Positions 39,301 to 62,830 of a stretch of DNA of 64,000 nt are shown in pieces. The DNA comes from Macrostomum lignano. Taxonomy: Eukaryota. Where the stretch lies: the NCBI GenBank assembly GCA_002269645.1, contig NIVC01001480.1, forward strand, positions 14,051 through 78,050, given 5' to 3'. Numbering within the stretch: position 1 is the stretch's first letter; every line of letters starts with the position of its first letter. Below the pieces are notes generated by a model. It was not told the origin of the DNA. It was given only the letters and a program-made list of their open reading frames with translations, and ran no database searches. A program made the position numbers and the translations under genes.

Positions 39301-41024
39301 GCCGTCCGATTTGGATCCCACGCTGAAGTTTGCGCTCAGCGCCCTGTGGAACCTCACAGACGAGTGCGAGCCCAGCTGTCGGCTGTTTGTGGAGGCCGGC
39401 GGCCTGGAGGCCTATCTCAAGCTGTTCCAACTGCTAGACTGCTCAGCCGGCGCCGAGGCCAGGCAGTGCATTCTGCCTAAGTGCCTGGGCCTGCTCAACA
39501 ATATTGCCGAGATGCCAGCCACTAGGAAGTCGCTGCTAGTTGCGGATATCATCTCGGTAAGGAGGCTTTAAACTATTAATATCACATCTTATCTCACGTT
39601 TGCCGTCTGTTAATCATTTTTTCCATCTCCTAATTCTCATAGGGATAATTCCATGTCCCTAATCCCATATCACTAATCCCATGTCCATCCCAGATCCCTA
39701 ATCTCATGTCCTTCATCCCAGATCCCTAATCTCATGTCCTTCATCCCAGATCCCTAATCTCATGTCCTTCATCCCAGATCCCCAATCTCATGTCCTTCAT
39801 CCCAGATCCCTAATCTCATGTCCTTCATCCCAGATCCCCAATCTCATGTCCTTCATCCCAGATCCCTAATCCCATCTTCTAATTCTTATCTCCTCACCGC
39901 TTACTCTTCATAATCTATGCTGTCAGTGTAAAGCTGTACTAACTCATCCCGCCACCGCACCCCCCAACTCGCAGATGCTGAGCCAGCTGCTCACCGATTC
40001 CAGTCTGAGCGTCGCCTACTTCGCCGCTGGCGTCCTCGCCAACCTGAGCCTCCTGCCAGATCGGGTCTGGCTCGAGCGGCTCAGCGAACGGCCGCGCCGC
40101 CGCCTGCTGCCAGCCGTTGGCGACGCCGTGCTGTCCTGGTCGGCGCCCGACGCCGAGATGGTGGCATACAGGTCGTTCCGGCCGTTCGTTCGCCTGCTGG
40201 AGCCGCGCCGGCACCCCAGCGCCCAGCTGTGGTCGCTGTGGGCCATCAGGCAGGTGTGCTGCAGGAACCGGCAAACCTACCTGCCGCTCCTGTCGCCCAA
40301 ACTGTTGCGCAACATCCGCGCGCTGCTGCCGCCCGACGCCGTGCTGCCCGCCGGCTGCTCCGCATTCGACGATCCGCTCGAGCAGCAGCCGGCCGACGCC
40401 GACGAAGCAGCTGGCACCGCTGACGCGCCCGACGCCGACGACGTCGACGAAGTCGACGAAGAGCCGTCGGGCTGTGCCGAGTCGCAGCAAAATAAACTCG
40501 GCGACGCGATCGGCGCCCTCGCCGCCGAGATTCTCGCCCTGCTGGCTGGCGGGGGCGGCACCGGCGAGGCCGTTGCTGCCGCCAATGCGTCGGCGCCCAG
40601 CGGCGAGTCGCGCGGCGGCGGCAGCAGCGACGACGAGGAGGACGAAAGTGAAGCTGAAGGGGATGCCGATGAAGATAGCGACGGAGTCGGCGGCGAAGGC
40701 GAATCGGCAAATGGTGGCGACGGCGCCTGCGGCGGCGGCGGTGGTAGCGGCAGCGGCAGCAACGGTGGCGGCGAAGCGTCAAACGGAGACGCCGCCAGGG
40801 ATGACGAGCAGCTTCTCGGTGCCGTTGGCGGTGGCGGCGGCGGTGGCAGCGGAGGCGTCAACCGCTCTGAAGGCGGCAGCGGCGAATCCTCTGTGCTGCA
40901 GTCGTCGAGGACCTCCTGCAGGACCGCTGGCGGCCCGGTCGGCCACTCCCTGCACAGGTCGTCCAGCGGCGGCGGAGTCGGCGAGCGCCAGGGTCACCCG
41001 ACTGGCGGCCTGCCGGGCAACTAG
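36389..41024 (+). CDS. zyg-11: ZYG-11/ZER1-family CRL2 substrate receptor (LRR + ARM); exons 36389-36772, 37426-37871, 38480-39556, 39975-41024; one apparent 1-nt deletion near 39027
   Basis: LRRs (LASLNLANT, LVHLDISKT, LEHLDVSGN), then LQLAGTAVLYNLT, QQQLQKNA, TLKFALSALWNLTDE, LGLLNNIAE and VAYFAAGVLANL. Restoring one C in gcctgc gives QKNALLTLCND. Confidence 0.85.
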
Positions 41025-46632: not shown

Positions 46633-50528
<3,896 letters not shown>

Positions 50529-52616
50529 TTCGACCGTCTGTCTGTGAGCTGCTGTAGGAACTCTGCTGCGATCGGGACTGAGAGTTTCAATTTTTGTCTA
50601 GGCTTTGGTGACTGTTTAAATCCGGTTGAACCCCCCCCCCCCAGCTCTGATTGGACACTGCGGAGCAATGGATCCATGGATAGAGATCTACTATTGGCAT
50701 TCTATCGTTGGCTGACAACCAATCTATAACTAGGAAGAGCTGTCAATCACCAGTCGGATGGTTATCGATGCCAGCAAATGTTTAATGAAACATTTGGCCC
50801 TCTGATGCGTTATGACAGCCAAGTGCATCAGTTTATGCCACTCGCGTTTCCTGTAATTTGCTCAACTCAGTCGTCATACAAAACTGCCGGAAACAATACC
50901 CGGTGTTTATGAGTTTGAGTAAGTACATGTACGATGTCACAGCCATTAGTGTTTATGAGTTTGAGTAAGTACATGTACGATGTCACAGCCATTAGTGTTT
51001 TCTTCTACAGTGTGTGGTGTCTCACAGCCAGAGAGTATAGTTATACCTTGAGTACATGTAAATGTACTTGTGTGACAACCTGAGCATGTACATGTATGGT
51101 AGATGCGGCGCAAATCATTGCAACTTGATGCATTTATTTGAAATAATTCTAATAGTCTGTGTTGTTTTGGTAATCCAACCCTATTTTACTGCACTAAAAT
51201 GGCATCATAAACTCAGATGCATGTACAATCAGTACGGAGATCAATACGGACAACTTTTTCTCTACATGTAGATTAGCGCGCCCATAGTCGATCGGCTTCA
51301 TCTTTTGCCACGGCAGACTTTTATGACATGTTATAGCGATCACTCTGTATACTTTCCCGGGAAACATGGGTGGCACGCTATGTCTGTCTACCGTCAGGCT
51401 TCTCAAGGGCCGCTATTTAAGAAGCCCTTGCTAATGGGTATCAGCAACAACGGAAAAGCAGCGTCGTCGTACATGTACAAGTACGTGGAATAGATAATTG
51501 GCTTAATTCATACATGTATATTACCAGTTCCAGAACCGGTTTGGAGCTGCTTTTCATATTGCCTCTTGCCTGTTCCGTTTTCAGAATCGGTTCCAGAAAC
51601 GTGTTGTGGTTCTAGAATTTGAATCGAAATATTTTGGCAGCTGCTTTTCCGTTGAAACAGTATATAAAAATATAATAATTTGAAATCGTCAATTTTTATT
51701 ATGAATATTATATCAGAGTTTTTGTCATATCCAGGAGGAAATAGAAAGTCAAAGAAAGACAAAATTACACTTGTAGACTGACAAATATTTAAAGTAGGTT
51801 CGATGCTTTTCCTACCGATCCTGGTTCTGGAATCGCAATAATTCAGGTTCTGGAATCAATCTTTCGTGAAAAGACTAGAAGTAAAGTAAGTATAAGTAAG
51901 AGAATGCAAATCAAGTCTTACACTTTTGAATGCAAGAATGTATTGTGCTACTCGTTGGAACCTGTAATTAAAGACAAATATTATTTTTTGGATGGTTTTA
52001 AATCTAAATTTTGTTATTTTCGTAAAACCTGCGCTGAATTTTGAAACGAACAACAAGGTTGTCTGATTAATTTTTTATTGACTGACTGACAAGTGACAAC
52101 TGCGTATGCTTCTGTATCTTTTATTTGATTCATTTTATCATTCCACTGATTCCACATCGTTATTATTTAATTATTAAAAATTAAAAATACAATTTTAAAA
52201 GCGAGAAAAAATTACTCTACCAAGTATATACTGAATTACTAGTATACTACTAATTTTTCTACTTTGATCTGTATTTTGTTTATGCTAAGCCTAGGGCTGC
52301 AAGGCCTATACCTTTTGCGTTCTACGACTACAGTTTTAGGAATGCTAGGCTAGCTAGTTTTCATTAAAATGCAAAAAAAACAATAAGAAATTCCAAAGGC
52401 TTGCATTATTGAATATATATAATATTGATGAAGTTAGGCTAGGCCTAGGGCTAGGAGTAGGTGGCTATCCTACAGAATAGGCCTAGTTTGTTAAACTCAC
52501 TGTATCAATGCACATTTTTAGCTGTTGCTTTTTTACTTTCCAAAAATGAATATTTTCATTTGCCAAAATTTTAGAAGTGTTTTGGTGACTGTAGAAGTGT
52601 AGCTCATCTAACAAAT

Positions 52617-54659: not shown

Positions 54660-57084
54660 AATTAAATATTATATATAATATAAGATTTAAATATAGCAAT
54701 ATATGCAAAATTTTTTTCACTTTATTTATTTGTTATTTTTATTAAGAATGCTTAAACACTTTTGAAAATTTATCTAATCATTATAAGTGTAAACCAATCA
54801 CTGTTCATTATAGGGAAACTATATTACAAGTAAAAAATTATTCAGTGCCCTATATATAAACAACTTTTTACCATGGCAAATGCTACTAGTTCAATATGTA
54901 TGGATAGTTTTTTAAAAGCCTTTTCATCAAATAGTCATTTGCTTATTTTGTCAAACATGTAGATGTCTATAGGATTCAAAATAAAATTTAAATAATTATT
55001 CTAGGTTAGGAATTTGATGCCTTATTGAAAGAAGTCCAAATGAATTAGAAAAGAACTTTATTTGTTCTGTATGTGTAGTGTTTCTATGAAAAAATATTTT
55101 TAAAAAGTAATTTTTGACTACTTAACTACTCAACAAAAATTCTTGATTTTGAGTCTCTAAAATAAACTTTAAATACAATGCTTTTTTAAATTAGGTGAGG
55201 TATCTATATTTGATAGGCCTAGTATTTAATAGAGACAACTTGATTTTGTCAGCCAGAATGTTTTTTATTTTTTGTTGTAATCTTCAATGTTTAAGATAAC
55301 AAATCCATTGCCCTTATCATGTTATAACACTAATAGAAAAGTCTGTTTCAGCAAAATGCTTTTTAGAAAAACAGTTGCTTATTATTTATTCCATTTTAGT
55401 TTAGATTCTATTGGTTCTGATTTTCAAAGCAAGTGCCTAATTCCCTATATGAAAATTAATAATGCCACATCAAGTTCTAATATAAGTAAAAATTCAAATT
55501 AAAGAATTAATACTTTTGTTTTGTTAGGACTCTGTGCATTTTTATGTTCATTAAGTCAAAAGTAAATGTCAAAAGGCAATATAACTTTCTTATGGCAATG
55601 GCTAGTCATAATATATATGAAACTACCAAAGTATATGCATGAATTTTATGCATGTCAGAATATTCAAGCATGTAGTTAGTTTTTAAGAGCTTTATTATGA
55701 GCTAGCTTCTATATACTAATTTTGCACTATTTGTCTATCTGTTGTCTGTCTGTCTATCTGTCTGTCATTGATCTTTTTGAAAACCATCTGGCTAATTTTT
55801 TTTCAAATTTGCTTTAAAAAAATTGACATTTTTAGAATTGTGCATAACTTTTTTGATAAAAAATTAAAATGGAAAGTGGGTCAAATATTCAAAAAATGAT
55901 TTTTTAATGCTTTCAATGGGCATTCTATTTCTAAATTTATTTGCTCAGTTCAACCATTTAGGCCTCTCCTTGGCCAATATACAGTCTAAGATATACATTT
56001 ACCACAATTGAGCTAAAGGAGTTTTATGACCCTTTGCACAGTGGGCTCGCAATTTGTAGGGTTGGTTAAAGTTTATTATTGTTGATGATAGAGAGTGGGT
56101 GCATGGGGGGGGGGTTAAACAGCTGGCCTAAAATTTATCAACCCCCTAAACTGCTCTGATCTTGTTTGTCTTATTTTATGAATACAACACTAGGTGGCGT
56201 AGTTGCAGAGGGGGGGGGTCAATAGCTAATGAGCCCAATTGATGCAAATTCATTTGGCAAATTGGTATAAAATGTCTATCAATTGTTAGTAAGTCAAATA
56301 TTCGAAAAACAATGTTTTTAATGTTTTTGATGTTTGAATTTTTTATTTGAATGCCAACCACTGGGGGCTGAGTGTCGTAGTGTGCTTTTACTCAGCAACA
56401 TCAAAAAGTCTGTGGTCGCCACTTTTTAGAGTGCAGGTAAAGCTTTTCTATCTTTGCGAGTGAAGCAACTTGCTATTCTGTGGCAGGCTTGAGTTGAGGA
56501 ATGAAGTGAGGGGGGGGGGTGCAGTGTGCGAGGGTTTTGTTGGATGGATTAAAGCTACCCAATCAGTTTTATTGTATATTTTATTTCAGAATAGTCCATG
56601 AGAAATTGCTCACTGGGGCATAGAGTGGCAAATTTCAAACAATAAAAAAATAGATTTAGAAGAAAGTCAAATGTTCAAAAAACAATTTTTCATGCTTTCC
56701 AAGTTTGGATTTTGAATTCGAATGCCCCCATGGGGGCTTAATGCGCTAGTATGTACTTTTAGTAGTATATAAAAAGGCGCTTCTAGACCCAGAGCACTTT
56801 TTTAATGACCGTTTTAAGGGTCTAGAGGGGGGACACGGGGGGTAAATAAAAAAACACATCTAAACACCATTAATACATCTAATCACCCATAATCACCCCT
56901 AACAATAAAAATCATTCCCAACACTTCCAAACACTCCCCAACACCCCCCTCGCGTCCCCCCTCTTAAGACCTTAAAAACGGCCATTAAAATAAGGTCTGA
57001 TCTGTAAGCGTCTTTTTCTATACTACTACTCTATAACCCCTTGCCCGCGCCGCAGGCGCGAAGGGTCTTTTTCTGTTACTAAAA

Positions 57085-57650: not shown

Positions 57651-59291
57651 TTAGTTCGCAGACATTATCTGGTTCTCATAAAAAGAACCCAATATTTCTT
57701 CACCATCCTTATCAGCAATTATATAGGTTGTAGGATTTGTATTTAAAACTTTACTGATGGTAAATTTCTCACTTATTTTCCAATATCCTTTTCTTCCCTT
57801 TTCAAACTTATCTTTCCATTTATAGATATAAACAGAATCACCAACCTTAAAACCTTTAGTTTTCTTTTTTTCAAAATCTCCAAAAGTAACCCTAACATTT
57901 TCAGGATTGTTATAAGCTTGTTGAGGAGTCATCTTTATCGCCGAATGATATGAATTGTTATAATCTTTCACTACGTCTGGTAATATTTTTACCCACTTTT
58001 GGTTACCATTAAGACTAAACTGAAACCATAATTTCTTACCTAAAGTTCGATTAAATCTTTCTATTAATGCGTTTTTACTCTCTCCATAAATAGAATAAAT
58101 TTTATTAATATACTCCCCATTCGCGTCTTTTTTCCTTTCTTTTCCTTTTTCAAAATGATACAATTTATACATGTGAGGATTGTAAAATTCTTTTCCTTCG
58201 TCAACACACAACCTTTCACTTTTTTCTCCAAGACTTCTAAAAGCAGCAGCAACCTCCTCTCCCTTTTTGGATTTTAAAGGAACAGCCCACGCGTATCGAG
58301 TAAAACCATCTAATATGGTTAAGATATATTTATATCCTCTTTCGTTCGGCATCGACATTAAATCAGCATACCAAATTTCATTCTTTTTGAAGTTCATGAT
58401 TTTTCTATAAAATTTAGGTTTTCGATATTCTTTATGAAGAATCTTTGCCTCATCAGAACTTAACCCGCCGCCACTTAACAACAAACACTCAACACAATTA
58501 TTTCCATGTTGATTATAATTAATTCCCAAACCAAATTTAACTTTAGACTGCAAGATCTTTTTAACCATCCACCTAGTTAATTTTTGACCTACCGATAATC
58601 CCTGCAAGTTATCTAATCCTTGAATCATTTTTTGATCGGCTTCATGTTTTAATCTTAATGCTTCCTCGGGCGGGTTCTTGTCAGCATCTCTATATGCTAA
58701 GTCGTGATAGTATGCTAACCAATCAATCCCATTTATTGGAATTGAATCAGATTTTGGAGTATTGTCAGGATTTAATCTCAAATCTAAGCGAGTGCCGGGT
58801 AGTTTACCCTCAATCTTTCGAAAGAGGCTGGAGCACACCTTAAGCGGCGATAATTACCGCCCATCTCCGTCTGCTCTCTGAACCTTCTCCTTATATTTAA
58901 AATACTTAGGAGCTTGGCTGCGCATTGCCACCATGTCTTCAAGCTTGTTACCTTTGGGAAGAGGAGTTACCTCTGTTCCTTCAAAAGATTTCTCAATTGA
59001 AGTGGTACTTGAAGCTGTATGACGGGTTTCACGCAATTTGGAGACATCGCCACTAATAGTGACTAGCAGTAGCTTTGCTTCTACCACTCAGGCCACGGGA
59101 TAACCTGTGAAGTTCATTGATGGCAGGTGTAGCTCACCCGTATACCTCCCAGTAGTAAATATTGGTGGTAAGCTTGTTAATCCTTTTTGTAAGTCTAAAA
59201 ATCCTCCTTCAAATACTAATTGATCGTTCCGAAGGAACGCGGACTTCGTCCGATCGAACCTTCGGTTCGCATGCGTCGCATGATTGCTCAT
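57651..59291 (-). CDS. PLA2-domain / retroviral-type integrase fusion; exon 1 59103-59291, exon 2 57651-58799 (445 aa spliced)
   Basis: Spliced product reads GELHLPSMNFTG^PGTRLDLRL...PINGIDWLAYYHDLAY...EAD, the parvovirus-like PLA2 motif set (YxGPG-like loop, HD, AD). It continues into a Polinton-type DDE core: WYADL, VDEGKEFYN, IERFNRTL, YNNSYHSAIKMTP. Confidence 0.88.
58800..59102 (-). ncRNA. Group I intron, IC1-like, 303 nt, no internal homing ORF
   Basis: P1 exon CAGGU/GCCUG with U.G splice wobble. P3 GUCUCC/GGAGAU. P4 UGCGUG/UGCGCA. P5abc with CUUCAAG/CUUGAAG, A-rich bulge ACAAG and GAGA and GUAA tetraloops. P6/6a CUCC/GGAG. P7 GAGAGCA/UGCUCC. P8, P9 with GAAA loop, P9.0 AG/CU, and P10 with exon 2 CCCGG. 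Confidence 0.92.
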
Positions 59292-59841
59292 TTTTAATAG
59301 CCTTAAAAATACATGAAAGCACCAATTGTTTTGCAAACTCTTCAATGGTTGGTTGTTTAACTTTTTTATAGTTATTATCTACGCTAGTTAAGTATCTTTT
59401 ATTTGTCCAATGTTCAGACTTTTTCATCTGATCTTCATCTTTGTAACTAAACGAAGAAGCGGGAATGAAATGATCAATATCTAAATTTCCAGTATAATCT
59501 TTTGAAACATAATATTTTCTTGTGAAATTTAACCAATCAAAAAAGAATTCTTTTGTGCAATCAAGATATGAGATATAGTCCTTGTCATTAAAATTTTTCA
59601 ACGCCCAATTTATTCTATTTCTAATTAAAACAATATGTTTGTAATTATCATCATTGTGATACTTGTTTTTTCTATATTCATTAAATTTATCTTTATTGTT
59701 TTTCATCCAAATAGTAGATGAGGTATTATGACAAGATCGACAATCATTTCTAAATTTTTTTGAATCATTTCTCCAAAAATAAAATTCTTTCGTCATTGGT
59801 TTTTCTTGTTTACACTTAATACAAATCTTTTTAGGTTCCAT
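59209..59841 (-). CDS. Free-standing HNH-type endonuclease with N-terminal CxxC...CxxC zinc motif (210 aa)
   Basis: KICIKCKQEK...CRSC, then LDIDHFIP...HWTN..YLT..DNNYKK. The pattern resembles HNH nucleases of phages and large eukaryotic DNA viruses. Confidence 0.72.
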   Translation of the reverse strand: MEPKKICIKCKQEKPMTKEFYFWRNDSKKFRNDCRSCHNTSSTIWMKNNKDKFNEYRKNKYHNDDNYKHIVLIRNRINWALKNFNDKDYISYLDCTKEFFFDWLNFTRKYYVSKDYTGNLDIDHFIPASSFSYKDEDQMKKSEHWTNKRYLTSVDNNYKKVKQPTIEEFAKQLVLSCIFKAIKNEQSCDACEPKVRSDEVRVPSERSISI

Positions 59842-59868
59842 TTTATAAAAAATAAATTTAACAATTAA

Positions 59869-60574: not shown

Positions 60575-62047
60575 ATGGCTGAAACAAAAACTATGTGGAG
60601 TGATAAATTTCATTTCAAAAAGCACCGACAGTATATTAATGAGGTCAGAGCAAGAGATTTAAATTATACCCTACCAACAAGTGATAATTCAAATAACTTT
60701 ACTACTGGAACGGTAACTTTTGACATCGGCGCAACCAACACTATATTGGATATGAAAAATGCATTTTTCCGTGTTAGATGGTTGTATACTAGAAATGATG
60801 GAACTGCTCTTGCAGCCGGAGATATCGCAGATCGATCCGGAATAATAATAGAAAATGATTGGTTTTATAAATGTTTTTCCCAAGCTCAACTAACTGTTAA
60901 TGGTGCTGAGGTTGAGACATCATCAAACCCCGCAGAGATTAATGGAGTTTTGAAACATTTAAATTATACTTATTTATCAAAACAAGTTGGTGATAATGTT
61001 GGGTGGATGCCGGATAAAGGTAACGGTCAAGCAGTAGTTTTCCCTAATGTACAAAACGCAGCCGGTGCAGATACTGCAGCGCTAATTGTTTACCTTAATA
61101 CAAACATAGTTCCAGTTGTAACCACTATGACTAATACAAAAGATATTAATACTGGTTTTATAGATCGTCAGAATAAATTCCCAGTCGCGGTTTTAACCAC
61201 AGCAACAGCATATGAGCAGGACTTTTCAATCTTTCCACTATTTGGGTTTTTCTCACCAAATCGGGTATGGAAAGGATTAAAATTTGGGATACAGTTGCAA
61301 ATATCTGGTGGATATCAGCCTAGGATACTTTATGGAACCTCAATTTCAACCGATATAGCAGTTCGTATAGATTCAATTCAATTAGTCGTACCAACTATTG
61401 AGGTAACAGCCCCACTTTTAAAACACATCGATAATCAGTTAACGCATGATCAGGAAATATTTTATTTGAATCGTCGACATTTTATGCGAACCATTAATAA
61501 TAACCAGGATTCATTCCAGTGGCAAATACTGACATCAAAACGTCGGGTGAGATATATTTTTGTTTGGTTTAAGATAACAAATAGAAGGAGTAAAAGAGCA
61601 AATGGGGATTTATATTGGCTTCAATCCGGTGCCATAGCAGAACAAGCAGCCACCGCAACAGACAATGCGGCTGCAGCTATTAACGAGTTTAATGTTCAGA
61701 ATATCCGCCTGCAGGTTGATGATCAATATTATCCGGTTAAAGACCCCCTAAATTTAAATATAGCAAATAATAATGTTAATGATTTTATAAAATATTATCA
61801 AGATTATGCTAAAAATGAAGCGTATGCCGTCCCTCAGTACACACCCACAGAGTTTCTAAACATTCATCCAGTGGTTGTTTATGATCTAACGGCACAGAAA
61901 GAAAACGTAGCCAATATTGGACTTAATTATATGTTAGAGATTAATAAAACTGGTAATCAGGCACTTGACGCCCACGTATTGTTTCTAGAGGAATATATGT
62001 CAATTGCTAAAGCTGATGGCACGATTGTTCGGGACGCGCCACTTTAG
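60575..62047 (+). CDS. Major capsid protein (double jelly-roll, Polinton PY/hexon-like), 490 aa
   Basis: VTFDI...LDMKNAF, CFSQAQLTVNGAEVE, RYIFVWF, NVQNIRLQVDDQYYP and PVVVYDL match the Polinton capsid pattern; size and gene context fit. Confidence 0.8.
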   Translation: MAETKTMWSDKFHFKKHRQYINEVRARDLNYTLPTSDNSNNFTTGTVTFDIGATNTILDMKNAFFRVRWLYTRNDGTALAAGDIADRSGIIIENDWFYKCFSQAQLTVNGAEVETSSNPAEINGVLKHLNYTYLSKQVGDNVGWMPDKGNGQAVVFPNVQNAAGADTAALIVYLNTNIVPVVTTMTNTKDINTGFIDRQNKFPVAVLTTATAYEQDFSIFPLFGFFSPNRVWKGLKFGIQLQISGGYQPRILYGTSISTDIAVRIDSIQLVVPTIEVTAPLLKHIDNQLTHDQEIFYLNRRHFMRTINNNQDSFQWQILTSKRRVRYIFVWFKITNRRSKRANGDLYWLQSGAIAEQAATATDNAAAAINEFNVQNIRLQVDDQYYPVKDPLNLNIANNNVNDFIKYYQDYAKNEAYAVPQYTPTEFLNIHPVVVYDLTAQKENVANIGLNYMLEINKTGNQALDAHVLFLEEYMSIAKADGTIVRDAPL

Positions 62048-62130: not shown

Positions 62131-62830
62131 ATGGTAAAGGCAAAACACGATAAGATATTTCCAAATGATCCTTTTCTTTGTTTAGTAATCGGAGGATCAG
62201 GTAAAGGAAAAACACACTTTGTTTACGATTTATTAACAACAGATGGAATGCTAGACTATAATAATTTAATAATTTATACTAATAAACCTAGAATAAAATA
62301 TTATGAATTTCTTAAACATGGATTAAAAAACAAATTAAAAAAAGATGTCTTGTTTAGAATGTTAAGAGCATATGAGCAATATGAGGATGATGACGAACCG
62401 CGATTTACACTCGATGACATTGAGGATTTATGTAAAACAATGGCACAACAGCCAGAAAACATCACCGAACGAGCCCCAACTGTTAGAGTATCAACCGATT
62501 AGCCTATGATCAAATTCCAAAACATGATAAAACACTAATTATTTTGATGATTGTATTAATGACGGTGATCAAGAATTGCAAAAGGAAATTTTTGTTAGTG
62601 GTAGAGGAGATGGAATTGGAGCTTTTTATCTAACACAGTCCTTTAGAGAATTAGAATCGATTATAAAAAAGAATGCAAGTTGTTGTGTAATGTTTGATTT
62701 AGATAATTATGATTTACAAAATATACACGCTAGATTTAATCCCGGGTTGGATGCAAAACCATTTAAAAGTATGTGTAAAAAAATTTGGGATGATAGCCAA
62801 TACAAACATATTTATATCAATCGAGGTTAG
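62131..62830 (+). CDS. A32/FtsK-like packaging ATPase, with apparent 1-nt deletions near 62500 and 62543
   Basis: Walker A LVIGGSGKGKT. Walker B LIIFDD and VSGRG...FYLTQSF...KNAS are recovered by adding single T's in T runs. Confidence 0.85.

Follow-up and report, generated by a model that had tools for sequence, protein, structure and literature searches.

How can an integrase gene in an animal chromosome yield a full-length protein when its reading frame is broken by a 303-nt insert with an early in-frame stop? This question is raised by a 64,000-nt stretch of the Macrostomum lignano genome (hereafter the window; assembly GCA_002269645.1, contig NIVC01001480.1, positions 14,051 to 78,050), which holds part of a Polinton and, within it, a PLA2-integrase gene encoding a PLA2-like domain followed by an rve integrase. 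A first-pass annotation had read the insert as a self-splicing group I intron. According to our analysis, it is probably a member, lacking an open reading frame (ORF), of a mobile group I intron family that parasitises the PLA2 glycine loop of the PLA2-integrase in animal-resident Polintons. Three intron types (A, which includes the window copy, B and C) and intron-less (empty) alleles occur in this genome. The interrupted gene is organised as follows, where pN/pS is the ratio of non-synonymous to synonymous differences per site:

59103..59291, minus strand: exon 1 of the PLA2-integrase gene, ATG at 59291; aligns with the N-termini of intron-less homologues, pN/pS about 0.3.
58800..59102, minus strand: group I intron of type A, ORF-less, 303 nt, IC1-like, last base A; RF00028 match, intron-less alleles, G at the same column in other copies.
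57651..58799, minus strand: exon 2, remaining PLA2-like domain and rve integrase, with an internal in-frame ATG at 58628; Pfam rve, E 1.6e-7.

On the minus strand, the segment GELHLPSMNFTG (...LPSMNFTG) stops at 59103 and the protein restarts with PGTRLDLRL at 58799, 303 nt further on. As the first-pass annotation had stated, the fifth codon of the insert is an in-frame TGA (59090-59088); a second stop lies further in, the two being codons 68 and 146 of the read-through frame. The covariance-model check proposed with that annotation was positive: Infernal placed the Rfam model RF00028 on 58809-59112 of the minus strand at 59.8 bits (gathering score 50; E 6.8e-15). The same intron was missed when 4 kb was scanned at once, so the match depends on filter settings. 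Folding of the intron strand gave a minimum free energy z-score of -2.68, with 1 of 100 shuffles equally good. The rve match of exon 2 lies just under its cut-off (31.9 against 32.6 bits), and a homologue of the whole protein (P0002) carries PF08398 together with rve.

Removal of the insert had been predicted to restore the PLA2 loop, and both proteins and alleles bear this out. The motif xGPGT is uninterrupted in all three intron-less homologous proteins that reach the site, and GPG[T/N] is present in 79 of 153 PLA2-like proteins, the remainder being largely partial or carrying GPxT/GAxT variants. In all four empty alleles fetched from the same genome, zero bases separate the two exons. Since these natural intron-less alleles show both splice sites, the intron ends are fixed; base 58800 is placed as the terminal base by P9.0, in agreement with the ends taken from the empty alleles. 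An upstream G was considered as the 3′ splice site and rejected: the sole in-frame option would insert three residues that no intron-less allele has and would disrupt P9.0. We are thus nearly certain that 59102-58800 is a group I intron with exactly these ends. Assembled contigs from 19 sequencing runs show presence, not absence, and may derive from DNA. The ligated-exon joint 59103/58799 did not appear in the contigs of 4 of the 19 runs over 58300-59500, and one contig (run X1) covers 58300-59044 unspliced, its source being DNA or RNA; neither result counts either way.

The structural elements of the intron are:

59089..59107, minus strand: P1, 5′ exon end and internal guide sequence with the U59103.G59093 wobble; it holds the start of the stop at 59090-59088 (fold).
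59049..59088, minus strand: P2 (59088-59065) and P2.1 (59063-59049), in whose loop the endonuclease ORF of type B begins (compensatory pairs, type B anatomy).
58937..59014, minus strand: P5abc, comprising P5a with an A-rich bulge, P5b with a GAAA loop and P5c with a 5-nt loop (covariation).
58830..58878, minus strand: catalytic core, with P7 at 58878-58872/58835-58830, the 3′ strand of P3 at 58868-58862 and P8 at about 58861-58843 (covariation).
58801..58829, minus strand: P9 with a GAAA loop (58827-58808) and P9.0 at 58829-58828/58802-58801 (fold, covariation).

This structure was derived from the window's own sequence and then scored on other copies, using 65 hand-named pairs (P3, P4, P5, P5abc, P6, P7, two P8 pairs, P9 and P9.0) and 37 distinct cores (28 of type A, 9 of type B). 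Pairing was retained in 98.8% of the cells of this 65 × 37 table, and 10 pairs were altered on both sides. None of 500 shuffles scored as high, and slid registers paired at 40-52%. The P1 wobble at the 5′ splice site was kept in 12/12 rows. P2 exists in two versions that differ by four consecutive compensatory pairs and is 100% paired, while P5a, P5b and P5c show one double-sided change apiece. In P7, three of six pairs are compensated between types A and B, and the guanosine-site pair G58876-C58831 remains G-C in 36/37 rows. The intron therefore has a covariation-supported ribozyme fold with an intact guanosine site.

The complete core drawn by hand in the first-pass annotation stands for P1 with its U.G, P2, P2.1, P3, P4, P5abc, P6, P7, P9 and P9.0, all of which were found, as was P5; P8 was scored for covariation at its two outer pairs, and P10 reached only four of five pairs, read by eye. 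Within P5abc (58937-59014), the A-rich bulge and the GAAA of L5b were recovered. The second proposed GNRA loop falls, because the register that covariation sets for P5c closes a loop of 5 nt (columns 114/126). The assignment to subgroup IC1 is supported by P5abc with its A-rich bulge, P2 and P2.1, features that define the subgroup, in part according to the accessible text of PMC3679873; the sequence has no room for P9.1/P9.2, and we therefore use the label IC1-like only.

The single-intron account of the first-pass annotation was right about this copy and missed the family around it, together with its empty alleles, the type B endonuclease and the terminal A. Family counts refer to an assembly and include duplicated haplotypes (two of the loci share a flank). 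For type A, the P7 motif gave 114 matches versus 14 in the control, and copies other than that of the window score 48-71 bits with RF00028. Type B gave 29 motif matches and 28 RF00028 matches at 73-91 bits (28 candidates scored); in each of the ten loci fetched, the intron is followed by the same PGT region, that of a second family of Polintons. Type C gave 24 motif matches, four of which were fetched (L080-L083, on C103, C904, C1867 and C87). It is a chimera: P2, P2.1, part of P5abc and the 5′ site agree with type A, and the core is a different one, which we take to resemble subgroup IE; two of the four reach RF00028 at 42.9 bits, below threshold. The 3′ end of type C is ambiguous, and its downstream codons differ at many synonymous sites, some of them complementary to its P1 loop.

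Intron-less alleles, which the first-pass annotation had suggested looking for in other Polinton copies, were found: 31 of 150 scored matches span the site unbroken (hand count), empty alleles with intact frames of 431-463 amino acids (aa) exist, and one empty copy (C3967) shares its terminus with the window element. A loose gap pattern had returned 348 matches versus 232 in the control, mostly unrelated repeats, and a tight one returned 0, because the empty alleles differ in exon sequence; a protein search then found them. Two of the four fetched (L077 and L084) have C where all filled alleles have the U of the U.G pair, possibly a refractory state. Introns and exons also differ in their degree of divergence. 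Identities to the window for exon 1, intron and exon 2 are 73/91/84% in L085 and 76/96/93% in L090, and over L085, L086, L088 and L090 the intron is 91-96% like that of the window at an exon 1 identity of 73-82%. P2 versions are moreover shuffled across intron type boundaries. Introns more alike than their exons and a shuffled P2 are what homing or recombination predicts.

Type B introns carry about 520 nt in the P2.1 loop, with an ORF that reads on into the core; it spans 228-233 aa in three of the ten loci and is shorter or was not located in the other seven. The ORF matches Pfam RE_Eco47II just under the cut-off (E 1.4e-5). Nine environmental homologues at 51-57% identity share invariant E49, D65, E76 and K78. 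Its structural model (predicted local distance difference test score, pLDDT, 83) finds the type II restriction enzyme EcoO109I as best structural match; a single-sequence fold (pLDDT 44) was unusable. From sequence and model, type B thus encodes a putative endonuclease of the PD-(D/E)xK (restriction) fold inside a peripheral loop of the intron. Four of the nine environmental homologues continue into P5abc-like sequence, which shows that this pairing of intron and nuclease occurs outside this genome too. For endonuclease relatives at 28-37% identity (20 viral and 2 metagenome loci), a location inside introns was found in 0/20 by blastn and 0/5 by Rfam.

The carrier of these introns and its surroundings were mapped to the following features:

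56761..57028, plus strand: Polinton left terminus, starting AGTAGT; the terminal 268 bp form an imperfect inverted repeat (sharp boundary, differing flanks).
60575..62047, plus strand: probable major capsid protein; BLASTP E 1e-10 to a type B element protein that matches Pfam DJR-like_dom at E 3.4e-11.
62131..62830, plus strand: A32-like packaging ATPase, split in two in the window copy; the Pox_A32 match (E 0.0045) does not reach the cut-off.
49191..50597, minus strand: host gene for a DEG/ENaC channel, at a distance of 6 kb from the tip of the element; Pfam ASC E 9e-24, best PDB matches FaNaC channels.
39870..41024, strand not stated: exon of a host ZER1-like gene; Pfam E 1e-25.

The element boundary is sharp at query positions 15-22 in 39 other top matches, and 12 loci have 11 different flanks. 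Four copies possess both ends, 17.7-23.2 kb apart, and three of these four complete elements, including the A-ending copy C110, are bounded by 6-bp target duplications. The window copy runs to the contig end, which cuts the element and leaves only one host junction visible. Polintons (Mavericks) are defined by features that include terminal inverted repeats and a 5-8 bp target-site duplication, as given in the available part of 10.1101/2023.08.22.554363. The identification of the carrier as a Polinton is supported by the integrase, the capsid protein with a double jelly-roll (DJR) domain via the type B element, the weak A32 match, the terminal repeats and the 6-bp duplications. The capsid candidate itself had no direct Pfam or PDB match, and no maturation protease was matched among the ORFs scanned, which cover part of an element. 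Regarding the host, the 764-Mb genome gave 86 matches to Wnt genes, which are animal-specific, and four Wnt-bearing contigs (C952, where the two are 23 kb apart, C506, C393 and C67) also carry an intron. The copies are thus integrated in chromosomes of an animal genome, and the proposal of a group I intron in a protein gene of an integrated animal Polinton holds.

Further observations concern the element ends. The 268-bp repeat contains a second AGTAGT-type tip, and two tip versions occur among the copies. The fourth complete element (C632:23545-41452) has flanks that form no target duplication, and its right flank resembles the left flank of L054; this suggests that insertions recombined or that the assembly was joined there. 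Immediately to the left of the window element (55856-56700), the host DNA contains three degenerate repeats of about 370-410 bp, and a gag-like ORF fragment (L074 1724-2340) lies just outside the tip of a type B element on C716.

Base 58800, with which the intron ends, is an A and not a G, a point missed in the first-pass annotation, and the terminal guanosine that is near-universal in group I introns (PMC6545197, accessible text) is therefore absent. Among 78 exact 3′ junctions of type A, 59 end in A and 19 in G (hand count). The terminal column of the 37 distinct cores has 20 A and 17 G, with G in all nine distinct type B cores and, in other type A copies, at exactly the 58800 column. In vivo splicing of a group I intron with a terminal A is described in the same source, for the hexacoral mitochondrial ND5-717. 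Given this exception and the G-ending copies of the same intron, the family assignment stands and the window copy is atypical. Copies L085 and L088-L092, whose type A introns and exons are the most divergent, carry the A, and A and G ends are interleaved on the tree (7 changes vs 12.6 when shuffled; 4/34 branches strongly supported), so the A is not a fresh lesion of the window copy.

Selection on the exons was compared as uncorrected pairwise averages over related, recombining and thus non-independent copies: pN/pS is 0.30 (exon 1) and 0.07 (exon 2) in A-ending copies, 0.31 and 0.06 in G-ending copies, and 0.11 and 0.05 in empty alleles (two distinct sequences). Because exon 1 is useful only if joined, purifying selection on it supports splicing. 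Exon 2 keeps a full-length frame in 16 of the 24 A-ending copies and in 5 of the 6 that end in G. As far as these sequence comparisons go, the family was very probably spliced while these copies diversified, and for A-ending copies such as that of the window we lean slightly towards splicing.

Relatives of the intron were found in viral metagenomes. A Q-element motif matched at least 122 stretches in IMG/VR; the best introns among them lie in RPB1 genes (L113, L173) and share about 72% identity with type A over a 190-nt stretch, and others interrupt capsid genes of nucleocytoplasmic large DNA viruses (NCLDV). A giant-virus P5abc piece is 86-88% identical over 66 nt; in metagenome contigs, no exact P5abc match was found. 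The PLA2-integrase was matched by tblastn in none of the 122 IMG/VR stretches, and an exact-pattern search of low sensitivity found no relative of exon 2 or the PLA2-integrase in IMG/VR viral contigs. The intron may have been acquired from an intron pool of large DNA viruses. Separately, matches to group I introns cluster at giant-virus capsid loci in IMG/VR (L103, L167, L179), with four to five of them in about 4-5 kb.

Taken together, the following course of events would account for the locus. The transcribed RNA would fold, free guanosine would cut at U59103, and the exons would be ligated at 58800/58799 to give the full PLA2-integrase. The 3′ A would be tolerated, perhaps at lower efficiency or aided by a protein, while P9.0 and P10 would hold the site. 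The ribozyme would derive from the intron pool of large eukaryotic DNA viruses, and the intron would spread among Polinton copies by homing or recombination, driven in trans by type B or by a neighbouring free-standing endonuclease. The likeliest driver would be the type B nuclease, as proposed for 'offspring' introns of Bodo saltans virus (BsV) in the accessible part of PMC5871332. The second candidate is the gene just upstream:

59209..59844, minus strand: free-standing endonuclease VII/HNH-like gene; PHROG 1035 E 3.3e-6.

Giant-virus contigs have relatives of this gene at their group I introns. Since the gene also occurs in L077, a copy that has no intron, it was rejected as an intron-linked partner, and collaborative homing by this enzyme is only a lead.

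Several points weigh against this course of events. The double-sided changes behind the fold come mostly from one split, that between types A and B, so that independent covariation events are few, and P10 is imperfect. The terminal A is accompanied by an ordinary G-binding pair in P7, with no compensating change, and its history is unclear, blurred by recombination and a poorly resolved tree. The pN/pS values may record selection from a time when the exon carried another intron or none. Activity and target of the type B endonuclease are putative, deduced from sequence and model. Finally, a 325-aa protein that retains the integrase core in full could be translated from ATG 58628 with no need for splicing, and other copies (empty or G-ending) could supply integrase in trans. 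A complete living homing cycle in an animal nucleus, with splicing from viral mRNA, spread by a restriction-fold enzyme, swaps of IC1-like and IE-like modules and a working terminal A, is accordingly a tentative proposal, to which we give slightly less than an even chance.

The last two of these points feed the most serious alternative, according to which A-ending copies splice poorly or not at all and are passengers on integrase made from G-ending or intron-less copies or from the internal ATG, the A having spread by recombination. The near-universal terminal G (PMC6545197, accessible text) speaks for it, the possible helpers are at hand in the genome (19 of 78 junctions G-ending, plus the empty alleles), and the 325-aa product from 58628 retains the rve core. 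However, A is the majority state and sits on the most divergent type A introns and exons, and both exon 1 and the ribozyme core stay conserved in these copies. Between 59314 and 58628 there are also twelve ATGs, eight out-of-frame and four short in-frame, which make scanning to 58628 on an unspliced full-length mRNA unlikely. We consider this alternative unlikely on the whole, though it deserves serious attention.

The viral relatives raise another reading, in which the introns are active solely while the virus is free, possibly in a host other than an animal or during giant-virus co-infection, and the chromosomal copies are silent fossils. It would fit the nearest intron relatives in giant-virus RPB1 and capsid genes, the environmental endonuclease relatives that run into the same P5abc sequence, and the protist origin of published introns in Polinton-like viruses (PLVs; PMC12220804, accessible text). 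It is made improbable by the many near-identical integrated copies with different flanks and target duplications, by three intron types and empty alleles recombining among resident families, and by a PLA2-integrase for which the low-sensitivity pattern search of IMG/VR found no relative.

The first-pass annotation had further proposed that the intron gates integrase expression, which could be extended to a regulatory switch with slow splicing and the terminal A as a brake. The in-frame stop five codons into the intron does block the full protein unless it is spliced, and the A end is common. Yet empty alleles with intact 431-463 aa frames coexist in the genome, ATG 58628 could bypass splicing, and three different introns at one site are expected of a homing target, not of a tuned switch. 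Because intron-less copies coexist, gating is unsupported and homing fits better; we regard a regulatory role as quite improbable, and gating as a side effect at most. That the element is a contaminant or mis-assembly, from a protist or giant virus co-sequenced with the animal, could draw on the contig end that leaves a single visible junction, but is barely conceivable in view of the 6-bp duplications in three of four complete elements, the four contigs that carry both Wnt genes and an intron (23 kb apart on C952) and the presence of the stretch in 19 runs from 7 studies under one organism label. A spliceosomal intron, hinted at by a GT two bases before the 5′ end, or an inert insertion merely resembling a ribozyme is equally hard to credit and was rejected on the TA...TA ends, for which no nearby GT-AG choice restores the conserved motif, the RF00028 match and the compensated P7.

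Two further features of the elements were recorded. Exon 1 contains a small variable insertion:

59222..59288, no strand assigned: polymorphic in-frame cluster of short GC-rich hairpins in exon 1; contig joints skip it, absent in L077.

In alignment A3, similar GC-rich hairpins occur in the P5, J5c and P6 loops of type B introns, their presence varying by copy; the hairpin family is possibly a tiny mobile element choosing neutral sites. A PolB gene is not in the window. In copy C1530 (L250 3726-7158), three overlapping frames show PolB-like motifs by eye, identified by patterns that we take to be those of PolB; these pieces had no polymerase match in Pfam, PHROG or PDB. The gene has an endonuclease VII/HNH domain, in which it resembles the pPolB2 class of nematode and oomycete Polintons.

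Known systems share parts of this arrangement. RF00028 introns in PLVs have been reported, in a few protist groups only, in the accessible text of PMC12220804, so such introns in integrated Polinton-like elements have been seen before. Those of Rhodomonas lacustris, Paulinella micropora and Desmodesmus armatus likewise match RF00028 and interrupt protein genes of integrated PLVs, at about 310-380 nt. They lie in a short gene before the capsid gene of protist elements, whereas here the host is an animal, the gene is the PLA2-integrase, the introns come in three types, one of which encodes a nuclease, and a terminal A occurs. The 'parental' and 'offspring' introns of the BsV polr2a gene (PMC5871332, accessible text) similarly place nuclease-bearing and ORF-less versions side by side, and giant-virus mRNA introns (same source; IMG/VR L113, L173, L167 and L245) share the IC1-like core and an ORF ending just before P3/P4. 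However, the BsV introns encode HNH or GIY-YIG nucleases in a cytoplasmic protist virus, as opposed to a PD-(D/E)xK enzyme in an animal-chromosome element.

Nuclear group I introns are described in the available portion of PMC3679873 as exclusive to rRNA genes of microorganisms, with nuclear homing endonucleases all of the His-Cys type. The rDNA introns of subgroups IC1 and IE (Tetrahymena Tth.L1925, Didymium) share with the present family these same two subgroups, the P5abc scaffold and the nuclear location, but differ from its setting in a viral protein gene of an animal, its restriction-fold ORF and its lack of P9.1/P9.2. ND5-717 (PMC6545197, accessible text) is likewise an animal, A-ending group I intron in a protein gene; it is mitochondrial, obligatory and fixed, whereas the introns here are nuclear-viral, optional and A/G polymorphic among copies. 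A restriction-type nuclease in a group I intron is known from the PD-(D/E)xK homing enzyme I-Ssp6803I, of a family described from cyanobacteria (PMC3943268, accessible text); the best matches here are Eco47II and EcoO109I. As far as the accessible texts go, introns are not mentioned in a coral polintovirus survey (PMC11131425, term search), the authors of an iridovirus paper found none (PMC4149023), and PMC11296320, 10.64898/2026.10.13.758929 and 10.1101/2024.03.25.586562 describe no such case. In this literature, covered mostly as open-access main texts, group I introns in animal Polintons or animal nuclear genomes were not found.

What appears to be new is the place, not the chemistry: a protein gene of animal Polintons hosts a family of group I introns that comprises three types, has a restriction-fold nuclease, leaves some alleles empty and varies in its terminal A. 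Animals are known to have group I introns in their mitochondria. Here, well over a hundred reside in a protein-coding gene in animal chromosomes, with Polintons as carrier and large DNA viruses as the likely source. They offer natural material to ask whether an animal nucleus can splice group I introns from mRNA, why animal nuclear genes lack them, and how a ribozyme manages when the terminal G is missing. The alleles of this single genome, whether filled or empty, with a nuclease or without one, also let the cycle of invasion, degeneration and loss be viewed from within. If the homing cycle is indeed alive, the polymorphic terminal A would be a natural series for studying how 3′ splice-site choice survives loss of the terminal G.

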